From IMG/VR virus record IMGVR_UViG_3300002092_000039: a DNA stretch of 64,000 nt; one strand, given 5' to 3'. Under the pieces are notes generated by a model. It did not search any database, was not told where the DNA came from, and saw nothing but the letters and a program-made list of their open reading frames with translations. This document shows, piece by piece, positions 38,886 to 61,335 of this stretch (position 1 is its first letter; each line of letters opens with the position of its first letter). The stretch is from an uncultured virus (IMG/VR IMGVR_UViG_3300002092_000039). Lineage: Duplodnaviria > Heunggongvirae > Uroviricota > Caudoviricetes. The position numbers were made by a program, and so were the translations under genes.

Positions 38886-39556
38886 ACACACGGTATCAAG
38901 AACGATACAACTATACTCCAATTAGACGAAAACAAACATCAGAAGGTAGGAAATATCAAACTCCTGATGGCAGCGCAGTCGCAAGCGTAACAACTATTCT
39001 TGAGAAGACAAAGTCTGAAGAAAAGAAGCAAGCTCTTCATGAATGGTGCAAGCGTGTTGGTACAGTCAAAGCGCAAGAGATAACTACAGAAGCTGCCAAT
39101 CGCGGCACAAGTATGCACAGTCATTTAGAACATTGGTTAGTTCATAATGAATTGCAGAATAAAAGTAATCTTGTGCATCAACACAGTGCTAAAATGGCTT
39201 CGAGAATAATTGAGGAATACTTAGATCCTCATTTAACAGAATGGTGGGGAAGTGAAGTTGGGCTCTATTATCCTGGATTATATGCGGGCACAACTGATCT
39301 TGTTGGCATCTATGATGGCGTACCCAGTATTATTGATTTTAAGCAAACTAATAAGCCTAAAAAGACCGAGTGGATTGAAGACTATTTCCTCCAAGCTGCT
39401 GCGTATTCTCAAGCGCATAATGCTGTACATGGCACTGATATTAAGCAAGGGGTTATATTGATGTGCAGTAAAGATGTAGAACCACAACATTGGATAGTTG
39501 ATCTAACCGAATATAATGATAAATGGTGGGATAGAGTATCGTTGTATTATAAATAA
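38867..39556 (+). CDS. PD-(D/E)xK exonuclease
   Basis: SVTTIL, RGTSMH, E..L....YAGTTDL, IIDFKQ, YFLQAAAY; start uncertain. Confidence 0.88.
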   Translation: MEHQLVNTRYQERYNYTPIRRKQTSEGRKYQTPDGSAVASVTTILEKTKSEEKKQALHEWCKRVGTVKAQEITTEAANRGTSMHSHLEHWLVHNELQNKSNLVHQHSAKMASRIIEEYLDPHLTEWWGSEVGLYYPGLYAGTTDLVGIYDGVPSIIDFKQTNKPKKTEWIEDYFLQAAAYSQAHNAVHGTDIKQGVILMCSKDVEPQHWIVDLTEYNDKWWDRVSLYYK

Positions 39557-39615
39557 TAATGCAAATCGCGGGACGGCAATCCCCATTTGCTCTATTGTTA
39601 TAAGGCAACAACAGC
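39548..39615 (+). ncRNA. Late-promoter-linked structured leader motif, copy 1
   Basis: TAAATA-N5-GCAAAT CGC GGGA cggcaa TCCC C ATTTGC TCTA; covaries with copies at 57902 and 61272. Confidence 0.7.
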
Positions 39616-40113
39616 ATGAATATTTACTATGTCTATGCATATCTAAGAGAAAAAACTTCTGACACTGCTCGAGAGAATACTCCGTACTATATAGGAAAAG
39701 GCAAAACTGACCGAGCATTTGAATATCACAAGTATATAAAAGTTCCTAAAGATAAAACTAAAATAATAATACTTGAAGCAAATCTCACTGAGATAGGAGC
39801 ATTTGCTTTAGAACGACGATATATAGAATGGTATGGTCGTAAAGATTTAGGAACAGGAATTCTATTAAATCGAACAGATGGCGGAGATGGCGCCGCAGGT
39901 CAAATACCTTGGAATAAAGGTAAAAAAGGTTCACAAGTACCTTGGAATAAAAATAAAACAGGCTTACAAAGTGCTTGGAATAAAGGGAAGCAAACTGGTA
40001 AAAAAGGGCTAACCTATGAAGAGATATATGGTTTAGAAAAAGCCTTACTGCTAAAAGAAAAGCGTAAACAAACAAAAATTAAGTATTGGGAAGATAACAA
40101 GACAACTACATAA
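39616..40113 (+). CDS. GIY-YIG-family homing endonuclease
   Basis: [30 protein letters not shown], three (P/A)WNK repeats. Confidence 0.85.
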
Positions 40114-40141
40114 TCTCACTAAATATATGAAAGTGAGATTA
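40111..40141 (+). promoter_or_regulatory. Hairpin containing late promoter upstream of tail gene
   Basis: taatctcact/agtgagatta inverted repeat; TAAATA at the left-arm/loop junction. Confidence 0.65.
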
Positions 40142-40145
40142 TTAA

Positions 40146-43100
40146 ATGGCAATCGTTTCCATCTCAAGGGTTCAACATCGTAGAGGTTTACAGCAGGATT
40201 TACCACAGCTGGCAAGTGCAGAACTAGGCTGGAGTCTAGACGAGCAACGCTTGTATATAGGTAATGGTAACCTAGGAGAAGGAGCGCCTCGCCTAGGTAA
40301 TACAGAAATATTAACTGAACACAGTGATATTTTAAGACTGGCTCAGACCTATACTTTTAGAAATGAAGCAGCAGGCTACACACCAACAACTGGTGGTAGA
40401 ACAAATAAATTTAACTCAATTGCATATAATAATGGACTTTATATCGCAGTTGGTATTGATGGAACATTGCTTACTAGTACTGATACTGCTACTTGGTCTC
40501 CCGTATATCCAGGTACCAAAAGTACATTGAATTGTATAGCATATGGCAACGGATATTTTGTTGCTGTTGGTGCAAGTGGCACTGTAGTTTATAGTACTGA
40601 TGGTAGTGTTTGGAATAAAGCCGCGTTCAGTGTTAACTATACTTTTACCTGTGTAGTATATGCTGGTTCACCCATTAACAACTTTATTGCCACTACTAAT
40701 GCATCAAATGGTACCATTGTAAAATTTAATACTGCACAGTTATCAACAGTTCCTGATAATGGCATCTTTATTTCTCAAGCAGTAAAAACAAACTTATATG
40801 CTGGCAGTCTTAACTCAGTTGACTATGATCTAGATGGTGAACTATTGGCTGCTGTTGGTGATGGTGGTGGAATTATTACTAGTACGAATGGTTCAACTTG
40901 GACCGTACAAGATACTCCCACTTCTTATCGTTTAAACTCTGTTAAATTTGCCACTGATCAATGGATCGCAGCAGGTGATTACAGCACAGTACTAATAAGT
41001 TTAGATGGCATAAGCTGGGGATATGGGTATACTGATTCCTTTAGAGCTGCTGCTAATAATAATACATATTTCATTTTTGTTGGTGATGATGGCATAGCAT
41101 ATTCCGTAGACGGTACGGCAAATGATAACAGTAATTTGGTAATTTTGAATACCGGTACTACCAATACATTAAATGATATTTTGTATACATCGTATAATAC
41201 CTTGTTTGTTGCTGTTGGCATTAACGGTACTATCGTAACCAGTGGCAACAATGGTGCTACTTGGACTACTCGTACAAGTGGAACAACTGAAGATCTACAA
41301 AAAGTATTTTACGATGGCACATTGTTTATTGCTGTTGGTACCACTGGCAAAATATTAACCAGTAGTGATGCAATAACTTGGACTAGTCGTACCAGTGGCA
41401 CAACTGAAAATCTGTATGGTGTTTCTAAGTTTAATACCAGCTACATTGCTGTTGGTACAAATGGTAAGATCCTAACCAGTAGTAATGGAACTACTTGGGC
41501 AACAGGAACATCTGGTATCAGTGAAGATTTAGAATCTATAGCAGTTGCTGATCTGGGAGGCGGATCATATGTTAGTGTTATAGTTGGTACTGCTGGTTCT
41601 ATATTACGCAGTACAAATGGAACAAGTTGGACAATTTCCACTAGTGGAGTTACTGATGATTTACATGGAGTGCAATACATAACATATACTGCAAATTCCA
41701 TTGCTAAAAATTACTTCTTTGCTGTTGGAAACAATGGAGCAATTGTTTATAGTACAGATGGAACAACTTGGAGTATTCAAGATCAATTGCAGGCATTTGG
41801 ATTAACAAGCCATTTGTTTAATGTATATTATGGTATTGGTAGCTTTTGGATTGTTGGTAGTGTGGGATATACATCAGTTTATGGATCAGACTTGACCGAG
41901 TCTGAAACAATGACCCAGCAAAGTCTTTCAATTTTGTATAGCAACACAACTGCATTTAGTGGTCCTGCATTACATGGAATTACATATGGAAATTCCAAAT
42001 ACGTCATTGTTGGGCAATTTGATACAATCCTTGCCAGTACAGACGGGCAGAATTTTACAAGTCAAACAGGCCGTTCATTTACATCTGAACGTTTGAATAC
42101 TGCTACAATTTATGACGTGATTTATGTAAACAGTAAATTTATTGCTGTTGGCAACCTAGGATTAATACTTCAGAGTACCAATGGAATTTATTGGACTGGA
42201 GTAAGTTATAGTTTTGGTAATACAATAACTATCAGAACACTACAGCAGAAACTAGATGACTTTGTAAGTGTCAAGGATTTTGGTGCTGTTGGTGATGGTA
42301 TTACTGACGACACTGAATCCATTAATAGAGCACTTTATGAAGTTTATTGCAGAAGCAATAGCACAACTGCAAGAAAAGTACTTTGGTTTCCGGCTGGTAG
42401 ATATATCATTAGTGATGGTGTTAATGTGCCTAGTAATGCCATCATAAGAGGCGAGGGTGCAACCAATACAGTTATAGTGCAGACAGCAGATCCCACTTAT
42501 GTAAGTTATGTTTTTATTACAGCTGATAGCTTACAGCAAATTGGTGGTCAGGTTGGATACAATGGTGCTTCACTGCCCAGCGATATTACTATCTCTGACA
42601 TTGGTGCAGAAGCACAATCAGATGGTATTTGGTTAACTAATGCCAGTAAAGTACAAATTACCAGAGTAAATTTTATTGGCGCATTGACTCGTCCAACTGG
42701 TATTGGTAATGAAACAACTGGACTTTATATCAATGGTTCATATATGAATCAACCAACTGATATTAATGTATTGGATTGTTATTTTTCAGGATTCAATTAT
42801 GCTGTTTATCAACAGGATACTGAGTATAGTCGCAACATATTATTCAACAGTACTACGTTCTTTAATAACTATCAGGGCATTGTAGTAACAACTGGTGGTG
42901 GTATGGTTAATACAATGACTGTAAGCAATTGCGTTTTTGATTCAATTGGTGATACTGCTATTAAAACTAATTACGCAACTAATGTTACAAGCACATTCAA
43001 TAGTTTTAGAGATGTTGGTAACAACTACTTGGGTATTGGCAACGCAATTGCATACTGTGTGGATTTTGGTACTGCTAGTATTGGTTGTGCAAGTATCAAT

Positions 43101-43547
43101 GACCAATTTGACAGAACAGAAACTGAATCCTATACAACTTATGAATGGGTAAATGGTAACGCAAATACCATTATGATGTCTTCTGGCCATGAACTGCGTA
43201 TTGGGCTTTGGGAACAAGCTGGTGGTGAAAAATATACACTATTGGTCAACAAGACAAATGAACCAACAGGATATACAGCAAAACTTTCAGATAATTCGTT
43301 CAATAAGAAAATTCAGTATGCTATTAGACGAGATTCTGCTACTAGAACAGGTATTATTCACATAGTTTATAATGGCAGTGGTACATATTTCATGGATGAT
43401 GAAAGCAAAGAAATAGCAGATGTTGGTGTAATCTTTAGCTTGAGCAGTAACGGCACACGACTTAGCTTGAACTATACTAGCACCGCAACTGCTGCGGTAA
43501 CATTTGAATTTGTAATGGCTGAATCTTATTTGGACTTTGTGTGGTAA
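40146..43547 (+). CDS. Tail fibre/spike with BNR-like propeller repeats and pectate-lyase-type beta-helix
   Basis: Repeated FIAVG..G.I.TS.DG.TW units; VSVKDFGAVGDGITDDT; N-terminal ELGW..D..RLYIGNG. Confidence 0.8.
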   Translation: MAIVSISRVQHRRGLQQDLPQLASAELGWSLDEQRLYIGNGNLGEGAPRLGNTEILTEHSDILRLAQTYTFRNEAAGYTPTTGGRTNKFNSIAYNNGLYIAVGIDGTLLTSTDTATWSPVYPGTKSTLNCIAYGNGYFVAVGASGTVVYSTDGSVWNKAAFSVNYTFTCVVYAGSPINNFIATTNASNGTIVKFNTAQLSTVPDNGIFISQAVKTNLYAGSLNSVDYDLDGELLAAVGDGGGIITSTNGSTWTVQDTPTSYRLNSVKFATDQWIAAGDYSTVLISLDGISWGYGYTDSFRAAANNNTYFIFVGDDGIAYSVDGTANDNSNLVILNTGTTNTLNDILYTSYNTLFVAVGINGTIVTSGNNGATWTTRTSGTTEDLQKVFYDGTLFIAVGTTGKILTSSDAITWTSRTSGTTENLYGVSKFNTSYIAVGTNGKILTSSNGTTWATGTSGISEDLESIAVADLGGGSYVSVIVGTAGSILRSTNGTSWTISTSGVTDDLHGVQYITYTANSIAKNYFFAVGNNGAIVYSTDGTTWSIQDQLQAFGLTSHLFNVYYGIGSFWIVGSVGYTSVYGSDLTESETMTQQSLSILYSNTTAFSGPALHGITYGNSKYVIVGQFDTILASTDGQNFTSQTGRSFTSERLNTATIYDVIYVNSKFIAVGNLGLILQSTNGIYWTGVSYSFGNTITIRTLQQKLDDFVSVKDFGAVGDGITDDTESINRALYEVYCRSNSTTARKVLWFPAGRYIISDGVNVPSNAIIRGEGATNTVIVQTADPTYVSYVFITADSLQQIGGQVGYNGASLPSDITISDIGAEAQSDGIWLTNASKVQITRVNFIGALTRPTGIGNETTGLYINGSYMNQPTDINVLDCYFSGFNYAVYQQDTEYSRNILFNSTTFFNNYQGIVVTTGGGMVNTMTVSNCVFDSIGDTAIKTNYATNVTSTFNSFRDVGNNYLGIGNAIAYCVDFGTASIGCASINDQFDRTETESYTTYEWVNGNANTIMMSSGHELRIGLWEQAGGEKYTLLVNKTNEPTGYTAKLSDNSFNKKIQYAIRRDSATRTGIIHIVYNGSGTYFMDDESKEIADVGVIFSLSSNGTRLSLNYTSTATAAVTFEFVMAESYLDFVW

Positions 43548-43993
43548 TGTCGTCAGTAATCAGTGATCTTATTACATTCATTGGAAAAACAAAATCAGTA
43601 ATCATGAGCGTTGGTTCAATTACTGGTTCTGTTTGGAATGGTATTAAATGGATAGCCTCCAAATTTAAATTTTGGAGGAAGACGGTAAAACAAGTAGAAA
43701 TTCCCATTACAGAAATAAAAAGTAAACCAAAAAGAAAACATGGAATTATTTCACATGTCAATTATAAACTTTTCCCCAAGGCAAAATTAACATATTGGCT
43801 TGCAGACGAGGAAGTTATAGTATATGTTAAGGCATTCAGTCAAAAGGATAAGTTTAAAATAACTTATACTGAAATTTTAACAGGTAGAGTAACAATGGTA
43901 AACAGCGCAGTCCCCATTAATTATAGGCTTGAAGAACTTAAACCAGGGGATATTATAGAACAAACAGTGGTGCAACAAGATCAGCATTATTGA
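43547..43993 (+). CDS. Hypothetical protein
   Basis: TAATG coupling to tail gene. Confidence 0.6.
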   Translation: MSSVISDLITFIGKTKSVIMSVGSITGSVWNGIKWIASKFKFWRKTVKQVEIPITEIKSKPKRKHGIISHVNYKLFPKAKLTYWLADEEVIVYVKAFSQKDKFKITYTEILTGRVTMVNSAVPINYRLEELKPGDIIEQTVVQQDQHY

Positions 43994-44433
43994 TGTTTTA
44001 TTATAACAAGCACACTAATATTCTTGACTGGCGAGAATTTAGAAGTAAGTTAACAACTTGGCCAGAAGACATCGAGACTGTAGCTCAAATCTGGGCTAAA
44101 GCACCAATCATTAATAACTATCTTGCATATGATGATACTCATAAATGGCCGGACGCTTGGACGCTCATTAATGAAGCCATTTATTGTGATATTTCTGTTG
44201 CATTAGGTATGTTTTATACGCTATACTACTCTAACTATTCAGAAAAAGATAATATGCGTATTGAACATTATAATATTCAAAGTGAACACACAACACTTAA
44301 TTTAGTCAATCTGGAGGACGGGAAATATATGCTTAATTACCATACCGGTCGCTCAGTAAATAACAACACGCTCGAGGGGTTGCCCTCGCCAACGTACATA
44401 ATCACAGCAAAAGAATTACCCATTAAGAACTGA
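43990..44433 (+). CDS. Hypothetical protein
   Basis: W.KAP...WPDAWTLI...YC pattern. Confidence 0.7.
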   Translation: MMFYYNKHTNILDWREFRSKLTTWPEDIETVAQIWAKAPIINNYLAYDDTHKWPDAWTLINEAIYCDISVALGMFYTLYYSNYSEKDNMRIEHYNIQSEHTTLNLVNLEDGKYMLNYHTGRSVNNNTLEGLPSPTYIITAKELPIKN

Positions 44434-44445
44434 GAGGCACGGTCA

Positions 44446-46761
44446 ATGAACTTTAATCGCACAATGGTCATCAAGAGAGATGGCCACAAGGAACTATTAG
44501 ATATTGAGAAGTTACATAAAGTCGTATATTGGGCTACTGAAGGCCTAAAGAATGTAAGTGTTAGTGAATTGGAATTACGCAGTCAGATTCAGTTTTATGA
44601 TAATATCAAAACTACTGACATTCAAGAAACAATGATTAAAGCTGCTGCCGACCTAATCAGTGAGGATTCTCCCAACTATCAGTATGTTGCTGGTCGCCTA
44701 GTAAATTACCATATCCGTAAGCAGGTGTACGGTGATTATCAACCATGGCATATCTATGACTTGATCAAGAAGAATGTTGCTGCTGGCTTTTATGATGCGG
44801 ACCTGTTGACTGATTATACCGAGGAAGAGTGGAATAAGATTAATGGATTTATGGATCACGAACGTGACATGTCATTAACGTATGTTGCCATGGAGCAACT
44901 TCGTGGAAAATACCTAGTACAGAATCGTGTCACTGGACAGATCATGGAAACGCCACAGGTGCTATATGCTTTAGTGGCAGCAGTGCTATTTGCCAAGTAT
45001 GAAAAATCAACACGCCTTAATTGGGTCAAGGATTATTATGAGTGTATTAGTAAGCATGACATTAGCCTCCCTACTCCTATCATGGCTGGGCTACGCACGC
45101 CGCAGCGTCAGTTTAGCTCCTGTGTGCTTATTGAAACAGACGATAGTCTAGACTCAATCAACGCTACAACTGCCGCCATTGTGAAGTATGTTAGCCAGAA
45201 AGCAGGTATTGGTATTGGTGCAGGCCGTATCCGTGCTATTGGTTCACCAGTACGTAACGGTGACACCAGCCATACCGGAGTTGTTCCATTCTATAAGTTG
45301 TTTCAGGCTGCTGTTCGTAGCTGTAGTCAAGGTGGTGTCCGCAATGGTGCGGCTACACTGTACTATCCTCTTTGGCATCTTGAAGTAGAAGACTTACTTG
45401 TGTTGAAGAACAACAAGGGAACTGAGGACACTCGTGTCCGCCATATGGACTATGGTGTTCAGTTTAATAAGGTGATGTATGAAAGGCTTCTTACGGGATC
45501 AAATATTACTCTTTTTAGCCCTAATGATGTTCCTGATCTTTATGACGCTTTTTATAGTGATACCGATACATTTAGGGACCTCTATGAAAAGTACGAGCGT
45601 AATACAAAGCTCAGAAAGAAGTCAATCCCGGCAATAGATCTGTTCTCAGCATTTATGACTGAGCGTAAGGATACTGGGCGTGTTTATCTTATGAATGTTG
45701 ATAACACAAACAGTCATGGTGCATTTATTGAAAGCATTGCTCCAATCAAGCAGAGCAACCTATGCTGTGAGATTGCATTGCCCACTAAGCCACTCACACA
45801 TTTGCATGATGAGAATGGTGAGATCAGTCTTTGTACGCTGTCTGCTATTAACTGGGGTAACATTAATAAGCCCAGTGACTTTGAGCGACCATGCAAGCTG
45901 GCTGTTCGCGCACTGGATGAACTATTGGACTATCAGGATTATCCAGTTCCAGCTGCCAAGATTAGCACAATGAATCGTCGTCCACTGGGTGTTGGCATCA
46001 TTAACCTTGCTTATTGGATTGCAAAGAACGATTTCAAGTATAGCGATGATAGCTCATTAACTAAACTTGACGAGTATATGGAAGCAATGAGCTATTATCT
46101 CATTAAGGCCAGTGTTGATCTTGCAATGGAAAAAGGTGCTTGCCCCAAGTCAGATGAAACCAAGTACTCATTGGGAATTATGCCCATTGATAGTCGTAAG
46201 CAGGATATTGATGAACTTGTACCATACAGCGAGCGTATGGATTGGGATAGTCTCCGTGCCGCAGCAAAAGCATATGGCATTCGTAATAGCACTTTGATGG
46301 CCTTAATGCCCGCAGAAACCAGTGCTCAGATTGCCAATGCTACCAACGGCATTGAACCACCACGCAGTTATATTTCAATTAAGCAGAGTAAAGATGGCGT
46401 ACTAAAGCAAGTTGTGCCTGAATTCCGTAAGCTTAAGAACAAGTATGAATTGCTATGGGATCAGAAGTCACCAGAAGGTTATATTAAAATCTGTGCGGTA
46501 TTACAGAAGTACATTGATCAAGCAATCAGTGTTAATACTTCTTATAATCCACAGTACTATCCTGACGAGAAGCTGCCAATGAGTGACATGTTGAAGCTTC
46601 TTCTCCTACATTATAAGTTGGGTGGAAAAAATTTATATTATTTTAACACCAAGGACAATCAAGGCGAGATCAATGTTGCTAAATTTGTTGACAACGCTAA
46701 TAGTGTAGCTTTGATGGATGATCTTCCATCTCAAGCAGAATGTGACAGTTGTACTATCTAA
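44446..46761 (+). CDS. nrdA: Ribonucleotide reductase class Ia alpha subunit
   Basis: ATP cone VIKRDG, PTPIMAG, FSSC, SQGGVRNG, SNLCCE, YY and C-terminal CDSC. Confidence 0.97.
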   Translation: MNFNRTMVIKRDGHKELLDIEKLHKVVYWATEGLKNVSVSELELRSQIQFYDNIKTTDIQETMIKAAADLISEDSPNYQYVAGRLVNYHIRKQVYGDYQPWHIYDLIKKNVAAGFYDADLLTDYTEEEWNKINGFMDHERDMSLTYVAMEQLRGKYLVQNRVTGQIMETPQVLYALVAAVLFAKYEKSTRLNWVKDYYECISKHDISLPTPIMAGLRTPQRQFSSCVLIETDDSLDSINATTAAIVKYVSQKAGIGIGAGRIRAIGSPVRNGDTSHTGVVPFYKLFQAAVRSCSQGGVRNGAATLYYPLWHLEVEDLLVLKNNKGTEDTRVRHMDYGVQFNKVMYERLLTGSNITLFSPNDVPDLYDAFYSDTDTFRDLYEKYERNTKLRKKSIPAIDLFSAFMTERKDTGRVYLMNVDNTNSHGAFIESIAPIKQSNLCCEIALPTKPLTHLHDENGEISLCTLSAINWGNINKPSDFERPCKLAVRALDELLDYQDYPVPAAKISTMNRRPLGVGIINLAYWIAKNDFKYSDDSSLTKLDEYMEAMSYYLIKASVDLAMEKGACPKSDETKYSLGIMPIDSRKQDIDELVPYSERMDWDSLRAAAKAYGIRNSTLMALMPAETSAQIANATNGIEPPRSYISIKQSKDGVLKQVVPEFRKLKNKYELLWDQKSPEGYIKICAVLQKYIDQAISVNTSYNPQYYPDEKLPMSDMLKLLLLHYKLGGKNLYYFNTKDNQGEINVAKFVDNANSVALMDDLPSQAECDSCTI

Positions 46762-46762: not shown

Positions 46763-46811
46763 TTATTATCTTTCGAATGTATTATATAAATACATTCGAC
46801 GGAGAAATAAT
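46763..46811 (+). promoter_or_regulatory. Late promoter inside an RBS-sequestering hairpin
   Basis: tcgaatgtatt/aatacattcga with TATAAATA at the apex; stem extends over GGAG. Confidence 0.75.
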
Positions 46812-47523
46812 GGATTATTTAAAAATTTACGAAAATCTTATGGAGAGATCAAGAAATCGTACTCTCCATGAGTATAAAGAAAAGCATCATATAATTCCAA
46901 AATGTTTAGGTGGAAATGATAATATAGATAATTTAGTAAGTTTGACCCCAGAAGAACATTATATTGCTCATTTATTATTAGTTAAAATTTATCCTAAAAA
47001 TTCAAAATTAATATTTGCCGCTAATATGATGGCCAATAGAAACAACAAATCATATGGATGGATTAAACGACTTTTCTCCATTGAGCAATCGAATTCAATG
47101 ACAGGGTACAAACATAGCGAAGAATCTAGAAAAAAAATGAGTCTTTCAAGAAAAGATGTACCTAAAACTGAGCATTTCAAAAATATTATGAAAATTAAAA
47201 AGACAAAAGATATTGAATATCTAGAAAATGTGTATAAAGGATGGGATGAATTAAAATTAGCAACCAATGTTTCTAGACATTTATATTTAAAATTTTATAA
47301 AAATGGCATAGATCCAGTACCATACATCAATAACAATTCTTATGGTATAGTTGAAAAGGCAAAAACGACTCCACCGAAAGCAGCATTAGGCAAAAAATGG
47401 TTTAATAATGGTTCAGCTGAAACATACTGCAACATAAATCAACAACCAAATGGGTGGATTAGAGGGAGGTTGCCTAGATTAAAAGATGAAAAAGGTAGAT
47501 TTCAAAAAGAGAAATCTATATAA
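46810..47523 (+). CDS. Free-standing HNH homing endonuclease (MobE-like position)
   Basis: EKHHIIPKCLGG....NLV.LTPEEH..AH; HSEESRKKMS; WFNNG..GR; between nrdA and nrdB. Confidence 0.9.
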   Translation: MDYLKIYENLMERSRNRTLHEYKEKHHIIPKCLGGNDNIDNLVSLTPEEHYIAHLLLVKIYPKNSKLIFAANMMANRNNKSYGWIKRLFSIEQSNSMTGYKHSEESRKKMSLSRKDVPKTEHFKNIMKIKKTKDIEYLENVYKGWDELKLATNVSRHLYLKFYKNGIDPVPYINNNSYGIVEKAKTTPPKAALGKKWFNNGSAETYCNINQQPNGWIRGRLPRLKDEKGRFQKEKSI

Positions 47524-47544: not shown

Positions 47545-48657
47545 ATGAGTGTATTTGATACGAAGAATCGTCAGGACCATACTAAGGTGCGAGCCTTCTT
47601 TGATGAGCCAGTGACGATTCAACGGTATGATTCGATGAAGTATCGCCAGTTTGAAAAACTGACTGAGCGTCAATTAGGATTTTTCTGGCAACCGCAAGAG
47701 ATCGATACTCTTCGCGATGCCAAGGACTTCAAAGATCTCACTACACATGAACAGCACATCTTCACAAGCAACCTCAAGCGACAGATCCTATTAGACAGCG
47801 TTCAAGGTCGTGCTCCGAGTGCTGCGTTTGGCCCAATCTGCTCATTGCCCGAACTAGAGACTTGGATCACAACGTGGACTTTCTCTGAGACCATCCATAG
47901 TCGCAGCTATACACACATCATCCGAAACATCTATAGCAATCCATCCAAGATCTTCGATGAACTTATGGACATCAAAGAAATCGTGGATTGCGCAGATGAC
48001 ATCAGCAAGTATTATGACAAGCTGATCTATATGAATAATCAATCAGCTGCCTTCGGTGGATATTATGATATTGTACCTCCAAATGATTTTGCTTATGAAC
48101 ATAAGAAAGCATTGTGGATGGCATTGATGTCAGTTAACATACTCGAAGGTATTCGTTTCTATGTCAGCTTTGCTTGTAGCTGGGCATTTGCTGAAGTTAA
48201 GAAGATGGAAGGTAATGCCAAGATAATCAAGTTCATTGCTCGTGATGAGAACCTACATCTAGCCGGCACTCAAACACTACTAAAGTTACTTCCAAAAGAT
48301 GATGAGTATTTTGCTCAAGTAGCAGAAGAAACTAAGGATGAGTGTATCAAGTTGTTTATTGATGCAGTTGACCAAGAGAAGAAGTGGGCTGATTATCTAT
48401 TCAAGGATGGCAGTATGATTGGGCTTAACAAGCAACTGCTCAGTGAGTATATTGAATGGATCGCCCACAAGCGTATGACAGCAGTTGGGCTTGCCTGCCC
48501 CTATAAGACAACCAGTAATCCGTTGCCCTGGACTCAAAAGTGGATTGCAGGTGGAGATGTTCAAGTTGCACCACAGGAAGTAGAACTCAGTAGCTATATC
48601 AGTGGTGGCACAAAACAAGATGTTGATCAAAATTCTTTTGCTGGGTTCAAACTATAA
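47545..48657 (+). CDS. nrdB: Ribonucleotide reductase class Ia beta subunit
   Basis: FFWQPQE, LDSVQ, ETIHSRSY, EGIRFY, RDENLH, APQE. Confidence 0.97.
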   Translation: MSVFDTKNRQDHTKVRAFFDEPVTIQRYDSMKYRQFEKLTERQLGFFWQPQEIDTLRDAKDFKDLTTHEQHIFTSNLKRQILLDSVQGRAPSAAFGPICSLPELETWITTWTFSETIHSRSYTHIIRNIYSNPSKIFDELMDIKEIVDCADDISKYYDKLIYMNNQSAAFGGYYDIVPPNDFAYEHKKALWMALMSVNILEGIRFYVSFACSWAFAEVKKMEGNAKIIKFIARDENLHLAGTQTLLKLLPKDDEYFAQVAEETKDECIKLFIDAVDQEKKWADYLFKDGSMIGLNKQLLSEYIEWIAHKRMTAVGLACPYKTTSNPLPWTQKWIAGGDVQVAPQEVELSSYISGGTKQDVDQNSFAGFKL

Positions 48658-54000: not shown

Positions 54001-54349
54001 TGGTAAAATTGCCAATAATGGATTGCTATTGACTAATAACGAGTTTATGGTCACAACATTAATGCAGATTGTTAATAAGCTTCTGTATGGTGATTTAAGT
54101 ACCACAAAGTATACGAATCCATTCAATACGGACCAAATGATTTATGGTGTGCTTGAGATGTTAGCTCAGTTAACCAATCAAAACATTGATGCATTAATGA
54201 AAACTGTAACAGGTGGATTAATTGCCAATGGATTGCTTGCAAGACTCATGCAACAGTTTGGTACTTCGCGCAGTATATACGATACTAGAATGAGTCGTAA
54301 CGATCCCGAGGCATGGGGTGGTACTGGTGGCGATGCAAAGTTACTTTAA
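51074..54349 (+). CDS. Virion protein with N-terminal M23 peptidase and long Gly/Ala zipper
   Basis: ITSPYGPR, HQGTD (HxxxD), GYGN, GNSGTSTGAHVH (HxH); GxxxG-rich stretch. Confidence 0.85.
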   Translation: MPSPFNTITSPYGPRSAPTAGASTFHQGTDIAMPVGTVLTNNTGQPLYLVYKGVEGGYGNYAEYSTTPDGTGKTYAFGHLSELPAGDVGTMANPGDGLALSGNSGTSTGAHVHVEVFQPGQDDASAPQSGDLAGIGANGVALGSGGTDPGTGNITVAGAGTAAPSSNSGGGSGGAGAGAAAAAGASVPAAGCLGASTSIASLLGGGALASAIGGVAANAVMAGGLALLSGGGLQGALGAVLGSAGGALGNALGASLGGAAGAIVGQTLGGALGSIAAGANPLQALSGAAFGALGQMGGSLIPALSGVMPAALASAAVGGLTGILGQVAAGVPKGAAAQFILAGGLGGAIGGAVGNMTGDFSYGAVSGAVASGLLNGSINLNGGSSSLYSRPNGTFNPAQFANNIAMVAATAANNRNMVGAISEAVSQGFGATQSAGYGARTRNMQDALTFSVSTLGQNLNAVSSDMLSLGKWDATNLMRLMQPGNIATQILMKGLGDYTGLNEALVAAGVPLAGLDNPLFDRVTQTVLNGITEPEVIYTVKAAFAMKTNFANLGELTNLSKMMPNSFQYLPVKSFRELGVQLAIIGVSASATIYDIGFAFSKIETATDLNNVAQMNQPLPPSIAQPLMEIYGYGGGTFGEQTMADFIGSAAGYVHNDTIPVIIDTTKYIENHPDAALLTTLIYLFKDTMDGKYTTLGTPGDTASGIPGEDGYITVPFPAGLGGSQTFTTLDAAVLAFIPLIEAQQQALLNSTDPLLQDNITKLSLAYEASCAQLVRENNNLLNHNINLFDAIPPSPSSCMMFTQMLDQWGLQTGYGQPGEYIERVATNDIFGDAMKYCMRQARNASALSGLGIDVEQYKIPRSQYYREPEGFYNNLYTGQMPPMSHNRRAPVYPRTPTDVYLNNRNTVLRNTGYGDLPLQANQMDEIYYDSIWMDTSSDVLEGIGRSVVKQAIDNSIYINNDDLLIVDLTGATTAIGKIANNGLLLTNNEFMVTTLMQIVNKLLYGDLSTTKYTNPFNTDQMIYGVLEMLAQLTNQNIDALMKTVTGGLIANGLLARLMQQFGTSRSIYDTRMSRNDPEAWGGTGGDAKLL

Positions 54350-54351
54350 AT

Positions 54352-54382
54352 TTGACATTCTTGGGCAAAAGTAGTATAAATA
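54352..54382 (+). promoter_or_regulatory. Overlapping sigma70-type and late promoter for tmRNA
   Basis: TTGACA (54352)-N17-TATAAATA (54375). Confidence 0.8.
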
Positions 54383-54387
54383 TATTA

Positions 54388-54683
54388 CTGTTGTTGATAG
54401 CAATGGAATAAGGCGGCAAGACGGGAGTGCGAATCTCCCCGCCTCCACCATAGATACATTGGACAGACATATCCCCTGTCAAACGGGGAAGATTGGTGGT
54501 GATGACAGTGTATCTTTGATGGGGGCGAAATAGGTTTCGATTGGTGCTGTAAAGATTGAAGTAGATAGTGGCGTGGAAACTGCCTTAACGTAACAAAACT
54601 ATAGTTGCAAACAATAACTTTGCCACTTCTTATGCACTAGCTGCGTAAATGAGCAAGGGGGAGCTTGGAAACAGAATCCCCCA
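54388..54683 (+). ncRNA. ssrA: Circularly permuted two-piece tmRNA
   Basis: Acceptor piece ends GAC-GGGAG-TGCGAAT-CTCCC-CGCCTCC-ACCA at 54450; coding piece starts GGGGGCG at 54521 (G3:U70); tag ANNNFATSYALAA* at 54607-54648; outer ends approximate. Confidence 0.93.
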
Positions 54684-54738
54684 ACTAATTTAAGGAGATC
54701 ACTAGGGCTTGGCAACCCTAGTCAAAACGGAGAGTGTA

Positions 54739-56024: not shown

Positions 56025-56042
56025 AGAGTCCATAAATATCAC

Positions 56043-57524
56043 ATGTTTTTAAATGCATTTGCCTTAGTCACTGCAATCAGTATTAGCGGCGTTGCTGCAT
56101 ATTACTCAATAGTTGGCCTCACTGCAATATTCAGTGGGGTCTTAATCCCTATTATTATAATGGGCACAGTATTAGAAGTTGGCAAGATCGTTACTACGGT
56201 TTGGCTGCATGTGAATTGGAACAGGATAAGTTGGGCCATCAAATACTATCTTAGCATTGCTGTGGTTGTGCTGATGTTTGTTACCAGCATGGGAATCTTT
56301 GGTTTCCTTAGTCGTGCTCATATTGATGCGACGAGTGGAGTAGGTGATAATCAACTTATCATTGAACAGCTGGATCAACAGATAGCAGTTGAGCGGCAGC
56401 GTATTGCTGATAGCCAACGTGTAATAGCACAAATGGATGCTGCTATTAATAATATCCTTAACCAAAGCAGCAATGCTAGAACTATTGAAAATCAGCGCGG
56501 CGGTCAAATTGCCAACCAAGCTAATACATTACGCAATACTCAAAAGAAAGAGCGCGATGCATTAAACAAGACAATTGACGATACCAACAAGCGTATAGCT
56601 GAAATTAATCAACAAAAGCTAAAGTTACAGCAAGAACAGGCAAAGACGGAAGCAGAAGTTGGTCCCATTAAATACATTGCACAGTTGATATATGGTGACA
56701 CTGTTAATAAAGATTTACTGGAACGTGCTGTAAGATGGGTTATCATTATTATAGTAGCAGTTTTTGATCCATTGGCAGTAAGTTTAGTTCTTGGTGTAAC
56801 TATGAGCTTAACCTATATTAAAAGGAAAAAAGATGAAGAAAGAAACACGAGTAGTATTGAGAGCCAACCAGCAAGCACAGCAGGCACGCCAGGAGAAGAA
56901 AGCTCAACAGTCGAGGGAAGAGATCAGCCAGTTACAAGCCAAGAACCAGAAATTAGATACATCGACAGGCCAGTAATTGAATATAAAACCATTGAAGTTG
57001 AAAAGATAGTTGAAGTTGAGGTGCCTGTTGAAGTCTTTACTAGAGTAGAGGTCGAGGTTCCCGTAGAAGTAATTAAAGAAGTTGAAGTAATTAAAGAAGT
57101 GCGAGTTGAAGATCATGCTCGTATGGGTGAACTTGCCAGAGAAATAGATAACCTATTAGGTGAGCTTAAGAATAAAGATCATGCCATTGGTAAATTACGA
57201 GCTCAAATTGAAATACTTGAACATCCAGATGACTTTGTCGTTAATGACAGCTTCTATGGTAAAACATTGCCCGCACAAGGCACAACTGGACAACTATTTG
57301 TTCAATATAGTGCAAATGGATTAAGTGTTTACAAATGGAATGGGGACAACTGGCTTGCCGTAGACAAAGAGCAGAACAGTTCTTATCTATTGGATGATCC
57401 AGTGACAGATGGAATAATAACTACGTTGGCAACCAGTGAACTTGATTGGGAAGTACTTACTCCCAGAGAACAAGAAGCACTGGAACCATTGCTAAAAGAT
57501 GATTTCAAGATTGGCCGTAGATGA
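56043..57524 (+). CDS. Multi-TM membrane protein with coiled coil and VEVPVE repeats
   Basis: N-terminal TM helices, EVGPIKYIA, VFDPLAV. Confidence 0.75.
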   Translation: MFLNAFALVTAISISGVAAYYSIVGLTAIFSGVLIPIIIMGTVLEVGKIVTTVWLHVNWNRISWAIKYYLSIAVVVLMFVTSMGIFGFLSRAHIDATSGVGDNQLIIEQLDQQIAVERQRIADSQRVIAQMDAAINNILNQSSNARTIENQRGGQIANQANTLRNTQKKERDALNKTIDDTNKRIAEINQQKLKLQQEQAKTEAEVGPIKYIAQLIYGDTVNKDLLERAVRWVIIIIVAVFDPLAVSLVLGVTMSLTYIKRKKDEERNTSSIESQPASTAGTPGEESSTVEGRDQPVTSQEPEIRYIDRPVIEYKTIEVEKIVEVEVPVEVFTRVEVEVPVEVIKEVEVIKEVRVEDHARMGELAREIDNLLGELKNKDHAIGKLRAQIEILEHPDDFVVNDSFYGKTLPAQGTTGQLFVQYSANGLSVYKWNGDNWLAVDKEQNSSYLLDDPVTDGIITTLATSELDWEVLTPREQEALEPLLKDDFKIGRR

Positions 57525-57904
57525 CAAGTGATGAAAAGAAAATAATTACTCCACCGGATTATGATTATTCGCGTGGTTTTAAAATTCTACTTGTTGATTT
57601 TGAGTGGCCAGAAATAACAAACGTAGTCGAAGCAATGAAAACATTTCCTGGACCAATGACATTATTTCTTTATGGAAGCAATGACTCTGATCCAAAATGG
57701 TGTATTGCTCAAGCCAAACAATGTAATAGTGTTTTGCTTAATATGAATCATATTGGTAATTGTGAAACACTTAAAGGCTATCTAATGGGAGAACCAAATG
57801 TATTTTCCTTTGGATCACATCATTTAAAAGATGTTTTTCAAAGGAATGTTCTTGATTCACTTAGCTGGCTTGCTAATTCTTATCAGAATTTTCATAAGCA
57901 GTAG
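57521..57904 (+). CDS. Hypothetical protein
   Basis: ATGA coupling; IITPPD. Confidence 0.7.
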   Translation: MTSDEKKIITPPDYDYSRGFKILLVDFEWPEITNVVEAMKTFPGPMTLFLYGSNDSDPKWCIAQAKQCNSVLLNMNHIGNCETLKGYLMGEPNVFSFGSHHLKDVFQRNVLDSLSWLANSYQNFHKQ

Positions 57905-57947
57905 AGTAGTTGGATGTTTCTAGCATCGCGAACTACAATTATATTTA
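57896..57947 (-). ncRNA. Late-promoter-linked structured motif, copy 3 (orphan)
   Basis: Minus strand TAAATA-N5-GTAGTT CGC GATG ctagaaa CATC C AACTAC TCTA. Confidence 0.7.
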
Positions 57948-58014
57948 TCATATTGACAATTAAAAATAAATTAGTTACAATATGAACAGTGGCATAGAAT
58001 CAATGAGGTGAAGA

Positions 58015-58755
58015 ATGTCAACGTGGAAGCTTAGTACACAATTTAAGAAATCATGCACACAAATTGAATATTTTAAAAAAGGTGAATTAGTTGCTCAGAA
58101 AGAAATCGGCTGGCGCTGGTGTTGGGCGAGGTATAATGAAAAGCCTGATCTAAGTGATTATGATCCAGAGAAGGACCAGATTGAACTTTATTCAATTGGT
58201 GACGTTATTGATATGGAACAAGACGACGGTTGTTGGGAAGAATGGACATGGCCTGAGGACTTGGATGAAGAAGAAGTTGAGCGTCTTGAAGAGATCTATG
58301 AAGAAGATGGCGATGATGGTCTCGAGGATGAAGAGTGGGTGCTTGACGATACTGAGTATTGGATAAGTGGTCCACTGGAACTAGTACAGGAAATCCAATG
58401 GTATCTAAATGGCGATCAGCCCATGGTACTTGTTGAGCGTTGGACTAAGGATGATCTTGTTGTTGAACAGCGCAAGACAATGGAAACAACGCATATTGTA
58501 TTTGACGAAGAACCAGATCTTGCGGGATATGATCCAGAAGATCAATTTGATGTTAAGTCATTGAATATTTCTACCAGATATGAAACTGAAAAGATTTCTG
58601 AAGAATGGGAATTTCCTGAGGATATGCCCAAGAAGGAACAGAATTGGTTTAAGAAATACGATTGGGATAAGTGGTCTAAGGCTGGGTGGACCAATGCAAA
58701 CAAGCAGCTATGGGTCACTGGCGAAATAACTTTAACAAAGGATGAGGAAGAATAA
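58015..58755 (+). CDS. Very acidic protein with internal domain duplication
   Basis: TTGACA-N17-TACAAT promoter, GAGGTG RBS; two PDL..YDPE / EEW..PED repeats. Confidence 0.75.
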   Translation: MSTWKLSTQFKKSCTQIEYFKKGELVAQKEIGWRWCWARYNEKPDLSDYDPEKDQIELYSIGDVIDMEQDDGCWEEWTWPEDLDEEEVERLEEIYEEDGDDGLEDEEWVLDDTEYWISGPLELVQEIQWYLNGDQPMVLVERWTKDDLVVEQRKTMETTHIVFDEEPDLAGYDPEDQFDVKSLNISTRYETEKISEEWEFPEDMPKKEQNWFKKYDWDKWSKAGWTNANKQLWVTGEITLTKDEEE

Positions 58756-59006
58756 TGAGTTTTGAATATGAAGACCTTCGTCAGAAGGGTACATTGGTTG
58801 AAGTACATAATAACGACGTTACTAAGGCGCTACGCAAGCTTAAGAAGGTTGTGCAGGCAGAGGGTATCTTCCAGACACTGCGTGAGCGTGAGCGGTTTGA
58901 GAAGCCCAGTGTAAAGCGTAAGAAGGAACAGGCTCGTGCCAGCAAGCGTTGGCAGAAGAAGCTTAAGGACTACCGTGAGCAGGGTAAGACTACCCAAGTT
59001 AGATAA
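58755..59006 (+). CDS. rpsU: Ribosomal protein bS21
   Basis: VHNNDVTKALRKLKK....EGIF..LRERERFEKPS.KR. Confidence 0.9.
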   Translation: MSFEYEDLRQKGTLVEVHNNDVTKALRKLKKVVQAEGIFQTLRERERFEKPSVKRKKEQARASKRWQKKLKDYREQGKTTQVR

Positions 59007-59064
59007 AAATTAAGTTTTTTTGTATAAAACACTTGATTTTTTAATCTGAAATGCTATATAGTAT

Positions 59065-59123
59065 TGTAGCAGTGCTAAATGAATAGGCTGCTACATATAT
59101 CTTGCTTTAAAAGGAGATACACT
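59065..59123 (+). promoter_or_regulatory. ROSE-like RNA thermometer
   Basis: Hairpin tgtagcag/ctgctaca, then TATC-TTGCT-ttaaa-AGGA-GATA with bulged G opposite the SD. Confidence 0.7.
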
Positions 59124-59558
59124 ATGAACGCAAGAACTTTTGACCTAACCCCTTTTCACCGTGGAACTATAGGGTTTGAAAATCTAATTAATGTATTAAC
59201 CCATCATCATGCAACTGCATCGAATACTGGGTATCCTCCATACAATATCATACGTGTTGACGAAGACGCTTATCAAATCGAATTAGCAGTTGCTGGATTC
59301 AGTATGATGGAGCTTTCAATTACACAGGAACGCAATGATTTGATCATTGAAGGTACTCCAAACGAACATGAGGATGATATTCCTCTATTTCTACACAAGG
59401 GAATTGCCAATCGTAATTTCATTCGCACATTCAAGATTGCCGAACATGTGGAAGTCAAGGACGCAAGTCTTGAGCTTGGCATTCTAAAGATTACTTTGGA
59501 ACGTAATGTTCCTGAGGAACTACAGCCTAAGAAAATTGCTATTAACTATAAAGCCTAA
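59124..59558 (+). CDS. Small heat-shock protein (Hsp20/IbpA-like)
   Basis: IGF, YPPYNI, IELAVAGF, HKGIA.R.F.R.F, GIL.I.L, PEE..PKKI.I. Confidence 0.95.
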   Translation: MNARTFDLTPFHRGTIGFENLINVLTHHHATASNTGYPPYNIIRVDEDAYQIELAVAGFSMMELSITQERNDLIIEGTPNEHEDDIPLFLHKGIANRNFIRTFKIAEHVEVKDASLELGILKITLERNVPEELQPKKIAINYKA

Positions 59559-59568
59559 TATAACCACT

Positions 59569-59597
59569 ATCATGGCGGGTATACTGCCCGCCATGAT
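59569..59597 (+). terminator. GC-rich hairpin after hsp20
   Basis: atcatggcggg/cccgccatgat; no clear T-run. Confidence 0.55.
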
Positions 59598-59618
59598 TAA
59601 ATAATAGTGATGGGAAAA

Positions 59619-59930
59619 ATGACAACAGAAACCGAAACAACTACACGCATTGCAATTAAACATGATCTGGTTGCGCCGCCTCAATACAAAGTTATATTTG
59701 TCAATGACAGTGTAACTACTGTGGATTTTGTTATGGAAATCTTAGTTACCATATTTGCATATGATGCAGATGGAGCAAAGGATCTTACATTGAAGATTCA
59801 CGAAGAGGGGCAAGCAGTTGTTGCTATTATGCCATATGAATTGGCTGAACAAAAAGCGTTGGAAACAACTGCTATTGCTCGTAGTAACGGTTTTCCACTC
59901 AATGTAAAAATTGAGCCAGTGGTCGTTTAA
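59619..59930 (+). CDS. clpS: ClpAP adaptor ClpS
   Basis: PPQYKVIFVND..TT.DFV, IHEEG.AVV, ELAEQK, GFPL; start could be 59607 or 59610. Confidence 0.92.
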   Translation: MTTETETTTRIAIKHDLVAPPQYKVIFVNDSVTTVDFVMEILVTIFAYDADGAKDLTLKIHEEGQAVVAIMPYELAEQKALETTAIARSNGFPLNVKIEPVVV

Positions 59931-60709
59931 GTTAAAATCATTTTGGGATAATAGAATAAGTTCTGGGGGCTGTCATCTTTACGACCTCTTGGGTGACAAA
60001 CGTATCTTACCCCATCAATTATTTCATCATACTCTTGATGTACATGCCCAAAGCACCAATTTTTAATTTTGCTATTGATATCAAAGTCTAAAATTTTAGG
60101 TAAAAAGCTACTACCACATCTTGAAAAATGTGCGGGATGTTGTGGTTGTTTAACATCATTAAATTTATTGAATGGTGCAGTATGTGTTAGTACAATAATT
60201 TCTGCCACACCTGGATCAGTAGTTAGTTTAGCAACTATCTCACACATATAATGAGCATCTTCTCTGGCAGTATGAAAAATTTCATACAATAATGGATCAC
60301 TATAATGTCCATTATTTAAAAAATAAAAGTACGCTTCTTCCCTGGATATTTCAGGTTCCATAAAATCAAAAGTCCACCAGCCATTTGCTCCAACAAATGC
60401 AGTGCCATCAATGACAATTGCGTTGCGATTTAGGAATGTGATATTTTGATATTTGCTTAATTCATTTTTTAATTGTTGATTATGTTCCTGAAATCCACAT
60501 TGGTTATTATGCTCGTGGTTGCCATCAACAAAAATTACATACTTGTAATGTTTACTAATATCCACAACCGTTCGATAAGTGTCCTCAACATCAAAGTTAA
60601 TGTCACCTAATACTACTGCTATCAAACTGGTACCAATACCTTCCCATTTTATTTTTGCATCATCGGGCCAGAAATTGTTATGCAGATCCGAGACAAGATC
60701 AAACTTCAC
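59927..60709 (-). CDS. Calcineurin-like metallophosphoesterase
   Basis: SDLH, GD, GNHE, THTAP, FGHVH. Confidence 0.9.
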   Translation of the reverse strand: MKFDLVSDLHNNFWPDDAKIKWEGIGTSLIAVVLGDINFDVEDTYRTVVDISKHYKYVIFVDGNHEHNNQCGFQEHNQQLKNELSKYQNITFLNRNAIVIDGTAFVGANGWWTFDFMEPEISREEAYFYFLNNGHYSDPLLYEIFHTAREDAHYMCEIVAKLTTDPGVAEIIVLTHTAPFNKFNDVKQPQHPAHFSRCGSSFLPKILDFDINSKIKNWCFGHVHQEYDEIIDGVRYVCHPRGRKDDSPQNLFYYPKMILT

Positions 60710-61271
60710 GTTGTAATCTCCTATTCAGTTGAGCAAGTATTCTTGCTTCTGACCAAGGTTTACCTTTCATCGAAGATCTGGCAGATCCTTTATCGACCCT
60801 TGTTTTATAAGTTTTTCCTAAATTAACAGGAATACCTTTTTTTGCTTTTGAGATATTGCTATTAACATCTACATCTCTAACTCTTGCTGCCTGACTTAAA
60901 CTCATTTTTAATTTAGTTTTCTCTGAATGAGTTTTACCTTTCCAAGGACCTTCTCTTCCAATACTGGATTTGCTTATTTTAACTTTGGCTTCATTGGTGT
61001 GCCTATATCCAGATATTCCCTCGCCTCCGTTAGTTATGTTACGCAAAATTCCTGATCCTAAATCTTTTCGTCCAAATAATTTTATGTATGCTATTTCTAA
61101 TCTGAAAGCATCGTACTCTAATAGATTTTGTTGTAAAAAAATTATTCTGAGAGGATCTTTAGGAACTTTTACATTGTGCTTTTCAAATGCTCTGTTCTTA
61201 CTACCTTTACCAATATAATATGGGGTGAGATCTTTTTCACGCAGGTAGGCGTAGATGTAGTAAATATTCAT
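60699..61271 (-). CDS. GIY-YIG-family homing endonuclease with NUMOD3 repeats
   Basis: YYIYAYLRE..PYYIGKG..R, LRNITNGGEG, HSEKTKLKMS; paralog of 39616 ORF. Confidence 0.88.
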   Translation of the reverse strand: MNIYYIYAYLREKDLTPYYIGKGSKNRAFEKHNVKVPKDPLRIIFLQQNLLEYDAFRLEIAYIKLFGRKDLGSGILRNITNGGEGISGYRHTNEAKVKISKSSIGREGPWKGKTHSEKTKLKMSLSQAARVRDVDVNSNISKAKKGIPVNLGKTYKTRVDKGSARSSMKGKPWSEARILAQLNRRLQREV

Positions 61272-61335
61272 GCTGTTGCTCCTTTAAAGCGATAGAGTAG
61301 TTGGGACTGCAATCCGCGAACTACGCTTTTATTTA
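61272..61335 (-). ncRNA. Late-promoter-linked structured leader motif, copy 2
   Basis: Minus strand TAAATA-N5-GTAGTT CGC GGAT tgca GTCC C AACTAC TCTA TC GCTTT aaa GGAGC AACAGC ATG. Confidence 0.7.

Follow-up and report, generated by a model that had tools for sequence, protein, structure and literature searches.

The window analyzed here is a 64,000-nucleotide (nt) stretch from an uncultured virus of the Caudoviricetes (IMG/VR record IMGVR_UViG_3300002092_000039). It is a phage fragment encoding terminase, a gp32-like SSB, UvsX, UvsY, a primase, a DnaB-like helicase, NrdA/B, baseplate and tail parts, and it contains three copies, A, B and C, of a hairpin element headed by a TAAATA box. A first-pass annotation, made from the sequence alone, had described these elements; their positions and anatomy are borne out by a re-reading of the sequence and by a covariance model that recovers the same three. 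The model, built from 56 relatives and run with filters off over the whole window and both strands, matches copy A at 39545-39632 (plus strand), copy B at 61340-61255 (minus strand) and copy C at 57952-57855 (minus strand), with 91.1, 89.5 and 47.3 bits (E 1e-19, 2.6e-19 and 1.3e-8). Nothing else in the window matches the model convincingly, the next score being 18 bits (E 0.3).

Copy A opens with a sense box, TATAAATA, at 39548-39555 (core TAAATA at 39550-39555), which overlaps the stop region of an upstream exonuclease-like open reading frame (ORF; 38867-39556). After a 5-nt spacer follows the first hairpin, P1 (39561-39590), which reads GCAAAT, CGC, GGGA, the loop cggcaa, TCCC, C and ATTTGC, and is made up of a 6-bp outer stem, a bulged C, a G-C pair, a second bulged C, a 4-bp inner stem and a 6-nt loop. 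The CGC and the returning C had been taken for an invariant internal loop, a description that has to be revised: the middle G pairs with the supposedly invariant C, this pair is A-U (CAC...T) in 7 of 61 relatives, and the Cs flanking it are single-base bulges. A TCTA linker (39591-39594) leads to the P2 region (39595-39611), which carries the Shine-Dalgarno motif AAGG in its loop, then to CAGC (39612-39615) and the start codon ATG at 39616. Codons 2-4 of the gene hold TATTTA (39621-39626), a candidate antisense late-type box that reads TAAATA on the minus strand and lies 5 nt from GCTG. The closest record, a 36-kb fragment (G001), is identical to the window across copy A.

Copy B, on the minus strand at 61272-61335, has the same parts: TAAATA at 61335-61330, P1 at 61324-61297, TCTA at 61296-61293, P2 at 61292-61276 and CAGC at 61275-61272, followed by ATG at 61271 and by a gene-strand TATTTA that forms a candidate antisense box on the plus strand (61261-61266), again 5 nt from GCTG. 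Copy C (57902-57947, minus strand) is an orphan, consisting of TAAATA (57947-57942), P1 (57936-57906) and TCTA (57905-57902) only; no P2, CAGC or ORF lies downstream, and a tblastn search with 131 cassette-linked nucleases finds no nuclease remnant beside it (best E 0.015). The complement of its CTA is the TAG stop of a plus-strand ORF (57521-57904), and the plus-strand P1 and U-rich tail come directly after that ORF. The ORF encodes 127 amino acids (aa) with no family match, and is either a real gene with the orphan P1 as its terminator or a chance frame.

The genes behind copies A and B are paralogous, as the first-pass annotation had it, with 52% identity over 130 aa. Gene A (39616-40113, plus strand) encodes 165 aa with a GIY-YIG-type N-terminal domain and ends 32 nt before the next gene; gene B (60699-61271, minus strand) encodes 190 aa with a domain of the same type and a NUMOD3 motif, and overlaps the next minus-strand gene, a metallophosphoesterase (59927-60709), by 11 nt. 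An alignment of 39 homologues has invariant Y5, Y7, Y24-Y25-I26-G27, R33, E66 and N85, and its profile matches a GIY-YIG protein (E 0.004). The AlphaFold model of gene A has a predicted local distance difference test score of 88-97 over residues 1-90. When it is compared with 48,161 chains, the top three matches are all GIY-YIG proteins: 9u75 (Z 7.3, root-mean-square deviation 2.6, 72 residues aligned), followed by the UvrC N-terminal domain (Z 5.9) and I-TevI (Z 5.7), where Z below 8 is middling. The Pfam GIY-YIG family does not match protein A or B, Foldseek finds nothing for the gene A model at E up to 0.001, and a search of solved structures with the gene B sequence gives no match. Motifs, profile and predicted fold together place both genes in the GIY-YIG nuclease superfamily.

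A covarying cassette ahead of nuclease genes

All three elements are instances of one portable control cassette, ~80 bp long, with which free-standing homing-endonuclease genes of uncultured T4-like (gp55-encoding) phages begin at their 5' end. In IMG/VR, most loci with relatives of proteins A and B (L002-L137) have the same block upstream of the gene. By strict or anchor-based hairpin rules, all retrieved DNA holds 165 distinct copies, and a gene-blind DNA pattern of the single commonest stem matches at least 125 further IMG/VR stretches; the covariance model finds 61 copies among 95 non-redundant sources. In these 61 relatives, all 17 model pairs have base changes on both sides, and 92.0% of the cells pair, against 65.9% in shuffles (none of 500 reaches the observed value) and 26-43% for slid partners. 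The covariation proposed from three copies is thus real, far beyond what three copies could show, and the cassette is a selected nucleic-acid structure, not a product of chance. Besides the stems, the two bulged bases and the flanking GU...UC of P1 are conserved.

Nearly all copies (153 of 165) lead into CAGC, ATG and an ORF, and a few others start with GTG or TTG. Two orphans were seen among the 165, window copy C and a copy in L148. In three contigs, two cassettes stand ~1.0-1.4 kb apart on the same strand, each with its own nuclease gene: L012 (1429-1517 and 2802-2892), L083 (1071-1165 and 2056-2156) and L099 (159-246 and 1429-1517). Variant leaders also occur. In L108 (~1400-1500), TATAAATA is followed by a perfect, bulge-free 10-bp hairpin before a homologous GIY-YIG gene, while L095 (1441-1517) keeps the CGC and has lost the inner stem.

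We Pfam-classified 64 ORFs behind copies found with the gene-blind pattern scan. Nine are HNH (PF01844), four HNH_3 (PF13392) and two DUF7487; six are weakly GIY-YIG or SegE, and several GIY-YIG-like families occur. NUMOD3 is present in 24 and the I-TevI DNA-binding domain in one, and 26 are without any Pfam match, which makes the cassette a sensitive marker for free-standing nuclease genes that Pfam misses. The proposed linkage to endonuclease genes thus holds, while the proposed restriction to the GIY-YIG family does not. With unrelated nuclease folds behind one cassette, the encoded nuclease is unlikely to regulate itself through it, and the suggestion that the RNA is a cofactor of the nuclease is likewise improbable for a cassette common to such folds.

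Window nuclease genes at 18528, 24770 and 46777 are homologous to cassette-linked genes elsewhere and have no cassette here. Two of them, 46777-47523 and 24770-25381 (both plus strand), are paralogous phrog_655 homing-endonuclease genes, 40-48% identical to cassette-bearing HNH genes of other contigs; the former is wedged between nrdA (44446-46761) and nrdB (47545-48657), with TATAAATA at 46785-46792 just inside its start. Another HNH endonuclease gene lies on the minority strand (2966-3475, minus strand), with TAAATA 7 nt before its start (3482, minus strand).

Cultured phages yielded no cassette: megablast of the gene A region gave no match, a typical leader, compared by blastn with 50,697 phage records, matched only a coding region of Synechococcus phage S-N03, and GIY-YIG homologues found by tblastn in the cyanophages S-SRM01 and B23 have upstream DNA without the cassette. 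Six pattern matches in bacterial or archaeal genomes (L266-L271) all lie on metagenome-bin contigs from phyla unrelated to one another (Haliscomenobacter, Mucilaginibacter, Paceibacterota, Terrimicrobiaceae); they probably represent phage DNA binned in error and offer no clue to the host.

Strand of the fold and facing boxes

In the 61-sequence alignment, an A.C combination on the gene strand reads as G.U on the opposite strand. The non-Watson-Crick cells comprise 62 A.C and 8 G.U, and all 8 G.U lie at the two loop-closing pairs. An anchor-only scan with no pairing rule gives the same picture, with 11 A.C and no G.U in P1 (about ten different stems) and 85 against 1 in P2. We then compared the strands over the same 61 columns of the same 56 sequences, using the mirrored structure plus three pairs formed by TCTA and CAGC. 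On the antisense strand 97.6% of cells are paired (P1 99.8%, P2 94.5%), as opposed to 90.1% on the sense strand (P1 99.3%, P2 77.5%), and the conserved TCTA/CAGC closing pair of P2 is G.U in 55 of 55 sequences when read antisense and A.C when read sense. In 56 of 59 cases the antisense fold is more stable than the sense fold (mean -18.2 versus -14.1 kcal/mol). For copy A it reaches -19.9 kcal/mol (z -2.81) and for copy B -16.5 kcal/mol; in both, the antisense strand is predicted to form two clean adjacent hairpins and a U-rich tail, and on the minus strand of copy A, CTA and CAG lengthen P2 to a 9-bp helix with G.U pairs. Pairing, wobble pattern and stability all indicate selection of the structure on the antisense strand: judged from the sequences, the opposite strand of the gene forms the better helices. 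The first-pass annotation had placed the fold in the gene-strand mRNA, and was probably wrong on the strand. As the fold fits the opposite strand, the product is probably not a folded mRNA leader but a small antisense RNA.

The ends of the cassette are mirrored as well. TAAATA-N5-P1 on one side and P2-CAGC-N5-TATTTA on the other amount to two facing boxes of the T4-late type, the former present in 117 and the latter in 114 of 139 copies. The distance from TAAATA to P1 is 3-6 nt in 156 of 165 copies and exactly 5 nt in 129. N-A-TAAATA is matched by the box in 112 of 139 copies, and both boxes prefer A before TAAATA. At its other end the cassette extends ~11 nt into the ORF. The ATG floats within the N5 that follows CAGC (ATGAA, AATGA, AAATG, ACATG, AATG), and TATTTA therefore falls in three reading frames, 5, 3 and 4 nt after the ATG in 108, 16 and 12 copies. 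It is found in 50 of 55 leader-bearing GIY-YIG homologues and in only 2 of 26 leader-less ones with similar N-termini; TATTTA thus tracks the leader, and is part of the cassette and not of the protein. An opposing TAAATA box at mirrored spacing, conserved in three frames and only where the leader is present, is a candidate promoter.

Several points stand behind the reading of the boxes as late promoters. The nuclease gene needs a promoter of its own, as by crude longest-ORF calls the cassette is mostly reversed relative to its neighbours: 77 of 112 upstream neighbours and 41 of the 46 downstream neighbours called (52 contexts examined) are on the other strand. A gp55-family sigma factor (phrog_234) is encoded in 11 of 21 leader-bearing virus records, including all 4 of those at least 90% complete. 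Among the 39 TAAATA sites in the window, 14 lie in the intergenic sequence, which makes up 4.1%, and 20 lie 0-80 nt upstream of a same-strand start. NATAAATA appears as a late promoter of T4-like cyanophages in the available part of one report (PMC2984593).

Readings of the cassette

A small antisense gene is the simplest unit in which all conserved pieces have a use. Our preferred reading, which we hold tentatively, is a cis-antisense RNA of ~65 nt over the nuclease ribosome site, resembling RNA-OUT of IS10. The sense box would drive the nuclease mRNA, starting at the foot of P1, and the opposite box inside codons 2-4 would drive the ~65-nt antisense RNA, starting at the G opposite CAGC. This RNA would be composed of a 5' G, an 8-9-bp antisense P2, a one-base linker, the bulged antisense P1 and a U-rich tail; in copy A the candidate is ~68 nt long (39548-39615, minus strand), with A as the linker and AUUAUUAUUUAUA as the tail. 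The loop of antisense P2 would present the anti-Shine-Dalgarno sequence CCUUU, and the tail, as the complement of the sense box, would end the RNA in the manner of an intrinsic terminator. The RNA would be fully complementary to the nuclease ribosome-binding region, and its pairing there would keep expression low, as RNA-OUT does for the IS10 transposase. Bulges in CopA, the antisense RNA of plasmid R1, speed pairing and protect against RNase III.

More cautiously still, we suggest that the cassettes may constitute the first known case of a small cis-antisense RNA family restraining homing endonucleases, with promoter, two hairpins and terminator in the first ~80 bp, exchanged among GIY-YIG, HNH and HNH_3 genes and present in hundreds of uncultured T4-like and jumbo phages. 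With the same caution, one DNA stretch might then combine the roles of late promoter, mRNA 5' hairpin, antisense terminator and first protein codons. Among the selfish genes of large phages, homing endonucleases are the commonest, and to our knowledge restraint of their toxicity is known for a few T4 genes only, each with a bespoke hairpin. One portable module on unrelated nuclease families would point to a common, transferable solution. Were the antisense RNA real, it would extend the self-restraint logic of IS10 and hok/sok to lytic phages and provide a compact case of overlapping signals on both strands of one 80-bp stretch.

Several observations weigh against this reading. The boxes are candidate promoters by analogy: no gp55 gene lies within the 64-kb window, and TATAAATA is not over-represented across it (6 found, 6.8 expected). 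P1 pairs almost alike on both strands (99.8% and 99.3%), the strand signal comes mostly from P2 plus the ~11 scattered A.C cells in P1, and the most frequent A.C positions adjoin conserved sequence and could just be unpaired. The same bias is also expected from selection on one DNA strand, as G.T is the mildest DNA mismatch. The counts throughout come from related sequences and are not independent events. Termination, for its part, has in its favour that the 9 nt after P1 contain 4-8 U on the antisense strand (mean 6.0, n=156), compared with a mean of 3.4 on the sense strand. The antisense P1 stem, by itself, has two bulges, an A.A mismatch near the base and a closing G-C in 44 of 61 sequences, a weak base to stand beside a U tract, and a simple terminator scan does not call it. 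Divergent neighbours start at a median of 46 nt from the box and within 19 nt in a quarter of divergent contexts. With a start codon this close, antisense P1 can be no efficient terminator there unless the gene is made by read-through; an efficient one would silence the neighbours that start 6-19 nt from the box. The fixed identity of the two bulged bases is unexplained under every model considered.

The strongest competitor of the antisense RNA is unlikely in our estimate, while carrying appreciable weight. It holds that the antisense hairpins act in the carrier phage's own transcripts and lower the cost of insertion, either as a terminator or insulator after backward transcription of the nuclease gene, or as a replacement late promoter and 5' leader for the neighbour. 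The orientation counts given above speak for it, the nuclease gene mostly lying in reverse within a run of phage genes. The closeness of neighbour starts to the box also fits, and these genes often have a clear Shine-Dalgarno sequence. Sigma-70-like promoters stand directly after the U tract: beyond the copy B box (61357-61385, plus strand; TTGACA-17-TATAGT, 11 of 12 matches), facing the divergent gene 61392-61754; right after copy C (57953-57981, plus strand; TTGACA-17-TACAAT, 11 of 12 matches), ahead of gene 58015-58755; and in several relatives (L179, L203, L104, L111, L106). Orphan C lies exactly after the stop codon of a plus-strand ORF, and T4 seg and mob genes are described, in the available part of PMC2988022, as embedding promoters of neighbour genes. 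Set against this, TATTTA is kept equally with a divergent (70 of 78) and a co-oriented (24 of 26) upstream neighbour, which favours a function intrinsic to the cassette. The copy A antisense promoter would read only into the 3' end of a convergent gene, a promoter with a terminator-like hairpin straight after it would serve a neighbour poorly, and the cassette is almost never found without a nuclease gene.

The function proposed in the first-pass annotation, in which P1 and P2 act in the nuclease's own late mRNA, with P1 as a 5' stabilizer or as a protein operator via its bulged Cs and P2 presenting or masking the ribosome site, is a good deal less probable. Its attractions are the start of P1 at 5 nt after the box, the distance at which T4-type late transcripts begin, the high sense-strand pairing of P1, the AAGG in the P2 loop, and the conserved bulges with their flanking GU...UC, which suggest specific recognition. 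A gene-strand RNA should, however, tolerate G.U and lose A.C, the reverse of the 62 A.C and 8 G.U seen; P2 is considerably better paired on the antisense strand, where alone TCTA and CAGC close the helix, autoregulation fits poorly with unrelated nuclease folds behind the same cassette, and the frame-independent TATTTA is left unexplained.

Improbable, too, is an element acting at the DNA level, be it a recombination hot spot that swaps nuclease ORFs behind a common head, in the manner of the PeSL elements, or a strand-specific single-stranded DNA hairpin recognized by some enzyme. The same head is joined to unrelated ORFs at a junction just past TATTTA, tandem cassettes occur in L012 and L083, P1 is nearly free of wobble on either strand, and the PeSLs offer a precedent, as far as described in the available part of PMC4122927. 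Homologous recombination, however, needs identity and not covarying stems, and the stems differ freely among copies; no conserved 3' partner site was seen at the ends of genes A and B, and no recombinase is linked to the cassette.

The least probable explanation, and one weakly refuted, is an I-TevI-type switch, in which ATAAATA of read-through transcripts would pair with the downstream TATTTAT, enclose P1 and P2 and hide the start while late transcripts would lack that arm: the boxes are exact complements, the box-box helix appears in minimum-energy folds of some read-through forms (L062, L179) and the start region is slightly more open in the short form (0.553 versus 0.476 unpaired), but the flanks do not covary (a C ahead of TAAATA has no matching G behind TATTTA in any of 22 cases), AUG accessibility is alike (0.427 versus 0.397, p 0.43), the helix has only 6-7 A-U pairs closing a ~75-nt multiloop, and there is usually no read-through transcript to mask because the upstream neighbour is mostly divergent.

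Comparison with databases and known systems

The cassette matches no Rfam family, in keeping with the first-pass annotation, which did not recognize it as a named one. We searched Rfam with the whole window, including copy A, at gathering thresholds, with seven relatives at E up to 1 and with window positions 57700-61500 at E up to 5. The first search matched only a transfer-messenger RNA (tmRNA) and a tRNA, the second only an unrelated ROSE_3 elsewhere, and the third nothing at copies B or C. The cassette would give Rfam a structured-RNA family that it lacks, well supported by hundreds of members and strong covariation. A literature search found no description of the cassette; most subscription journals lie outside its coverage, so that absence from the literature is not proven.

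The tRNA and the tmRNA are the window's own. The tmRNA (54348-54686, plus strand) is of the permuted alphaproteobacterial type (122 and 105 bits), has TATAAATA near its start (54375-54382) and hints at an alphaproteobacterial host. Elsewhere on the plus strand, a host-like auxiliary run (58755-59930) encodes ribosomal protein S21 (58755-59006), Hsp20 (59079-59558) and a ClpS-like protease adaptor (59607-59930), and three radical-SAM-domain proteins (423-1736, 9862-10866 and 31118-32305) are encoded among replication and recombination genes.

Dassa et al. (2009) reported upstream hairpins and TATAAATA as common to metagenomic free-standing endonuclease genes from different families ("fractured genes"; PMC2677866). 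In the available part of that report, the MEME motifs (e.g. GATTACACTTCCTATAATG) are other sequences than the cassette, and the hairpins include the promoter. A precedent for the antisense reading, besides IS10, is CfrI, an RNA antisense to a homing-endonuclease gene that has been described in the T4-like cyanophage S-PM2 (PMC2984593). As far as the available text goes, it differs in being ~225 nt long and in linking the endonuclease gene to psbA; no sequence or structure in common with the cassette was seen, though no comparison aimed at one was made.

The PeSLs are short repeated composites of a stem-loop or terminator and a promoter, which recur in and among T4-like genomes where modules are exchanged (PMC4122927). 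As presented in the accessible portion of that report, they consist of a simple stem-loop joined to an early promoter of the sigma-70 type and stand beside various small genes. The boxes of the cassette, by contrast, are late-type, its two hairpins covary and have fixed bulges, and it reaches into the ORF and goes with homing endonucleases. The window holds three copies of the cassette in 64 kb, two of them on nuclease genes. The cassette is not a PeSL: its own boxes are late-type, and sigma-70-like promoters accompany it in some contexts only, outside the conserved block.

Homing endonuclease genes of T-even phages and Aeh1 (I-TevI, I-TevII, I-TevIII, segB, mobE), and seg43(25), have a late promoter inside an inhibitory hairpin (PMC2988022). 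According to the part of this source available to us, the likeness lies in nuclease genes of T4-like phages with their own late promoter and an RNA hairpin beside the ribosome site; there, the fold acts in gene-strand read-through mRNA and is gene-specific, whereas the cassette is a shared module. Its two hairpins both lie downstream of the TAAATA box, with the promoter not inside a hairpin, so that the proposed distinction from the I-TevI/mobE-type switch stands; a second box faces the first, and the fold fits the opposite strand. The classical I-TevI/mobE layout of a promoter within a hairpin is also present in the window, at 18470-18512 (plus strand), where a near-perfect hairpin (-23.9 kcal/mol, z -4.96) has TATAAATA (18480-18487) in its 5' arm. 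The tRNA (18390-18462) directly precedes this hairpin, which ends ~16 nt short of a GIY-YIG homing-endonuclease gene with a TTG start (18528-19169) and could alternatively be the terminator of the tRNA.

The closest counterpart of the proposed antisense RNA is IS10, with its facing promoters pIN and pOUT and the 69-nt antisense RNA-OUT (PMC5006887). In IS10, going by the available part of that source, a short structured RNA made from an opposing promoter within the 5' end of the selfish gene lies over the gene start, translation initiation region included, and the candidate RNA of the cassette would do likewise. The cassette would differ from IS10 in that its promoters would be of the T4-late type, and its candidate RNA would have two hairpins, the doubly bulged one acting as terminator. 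The antisense RNA that we infer here would also belong to a cassette common to unrelated nuclease genes and carried by lytic phages.

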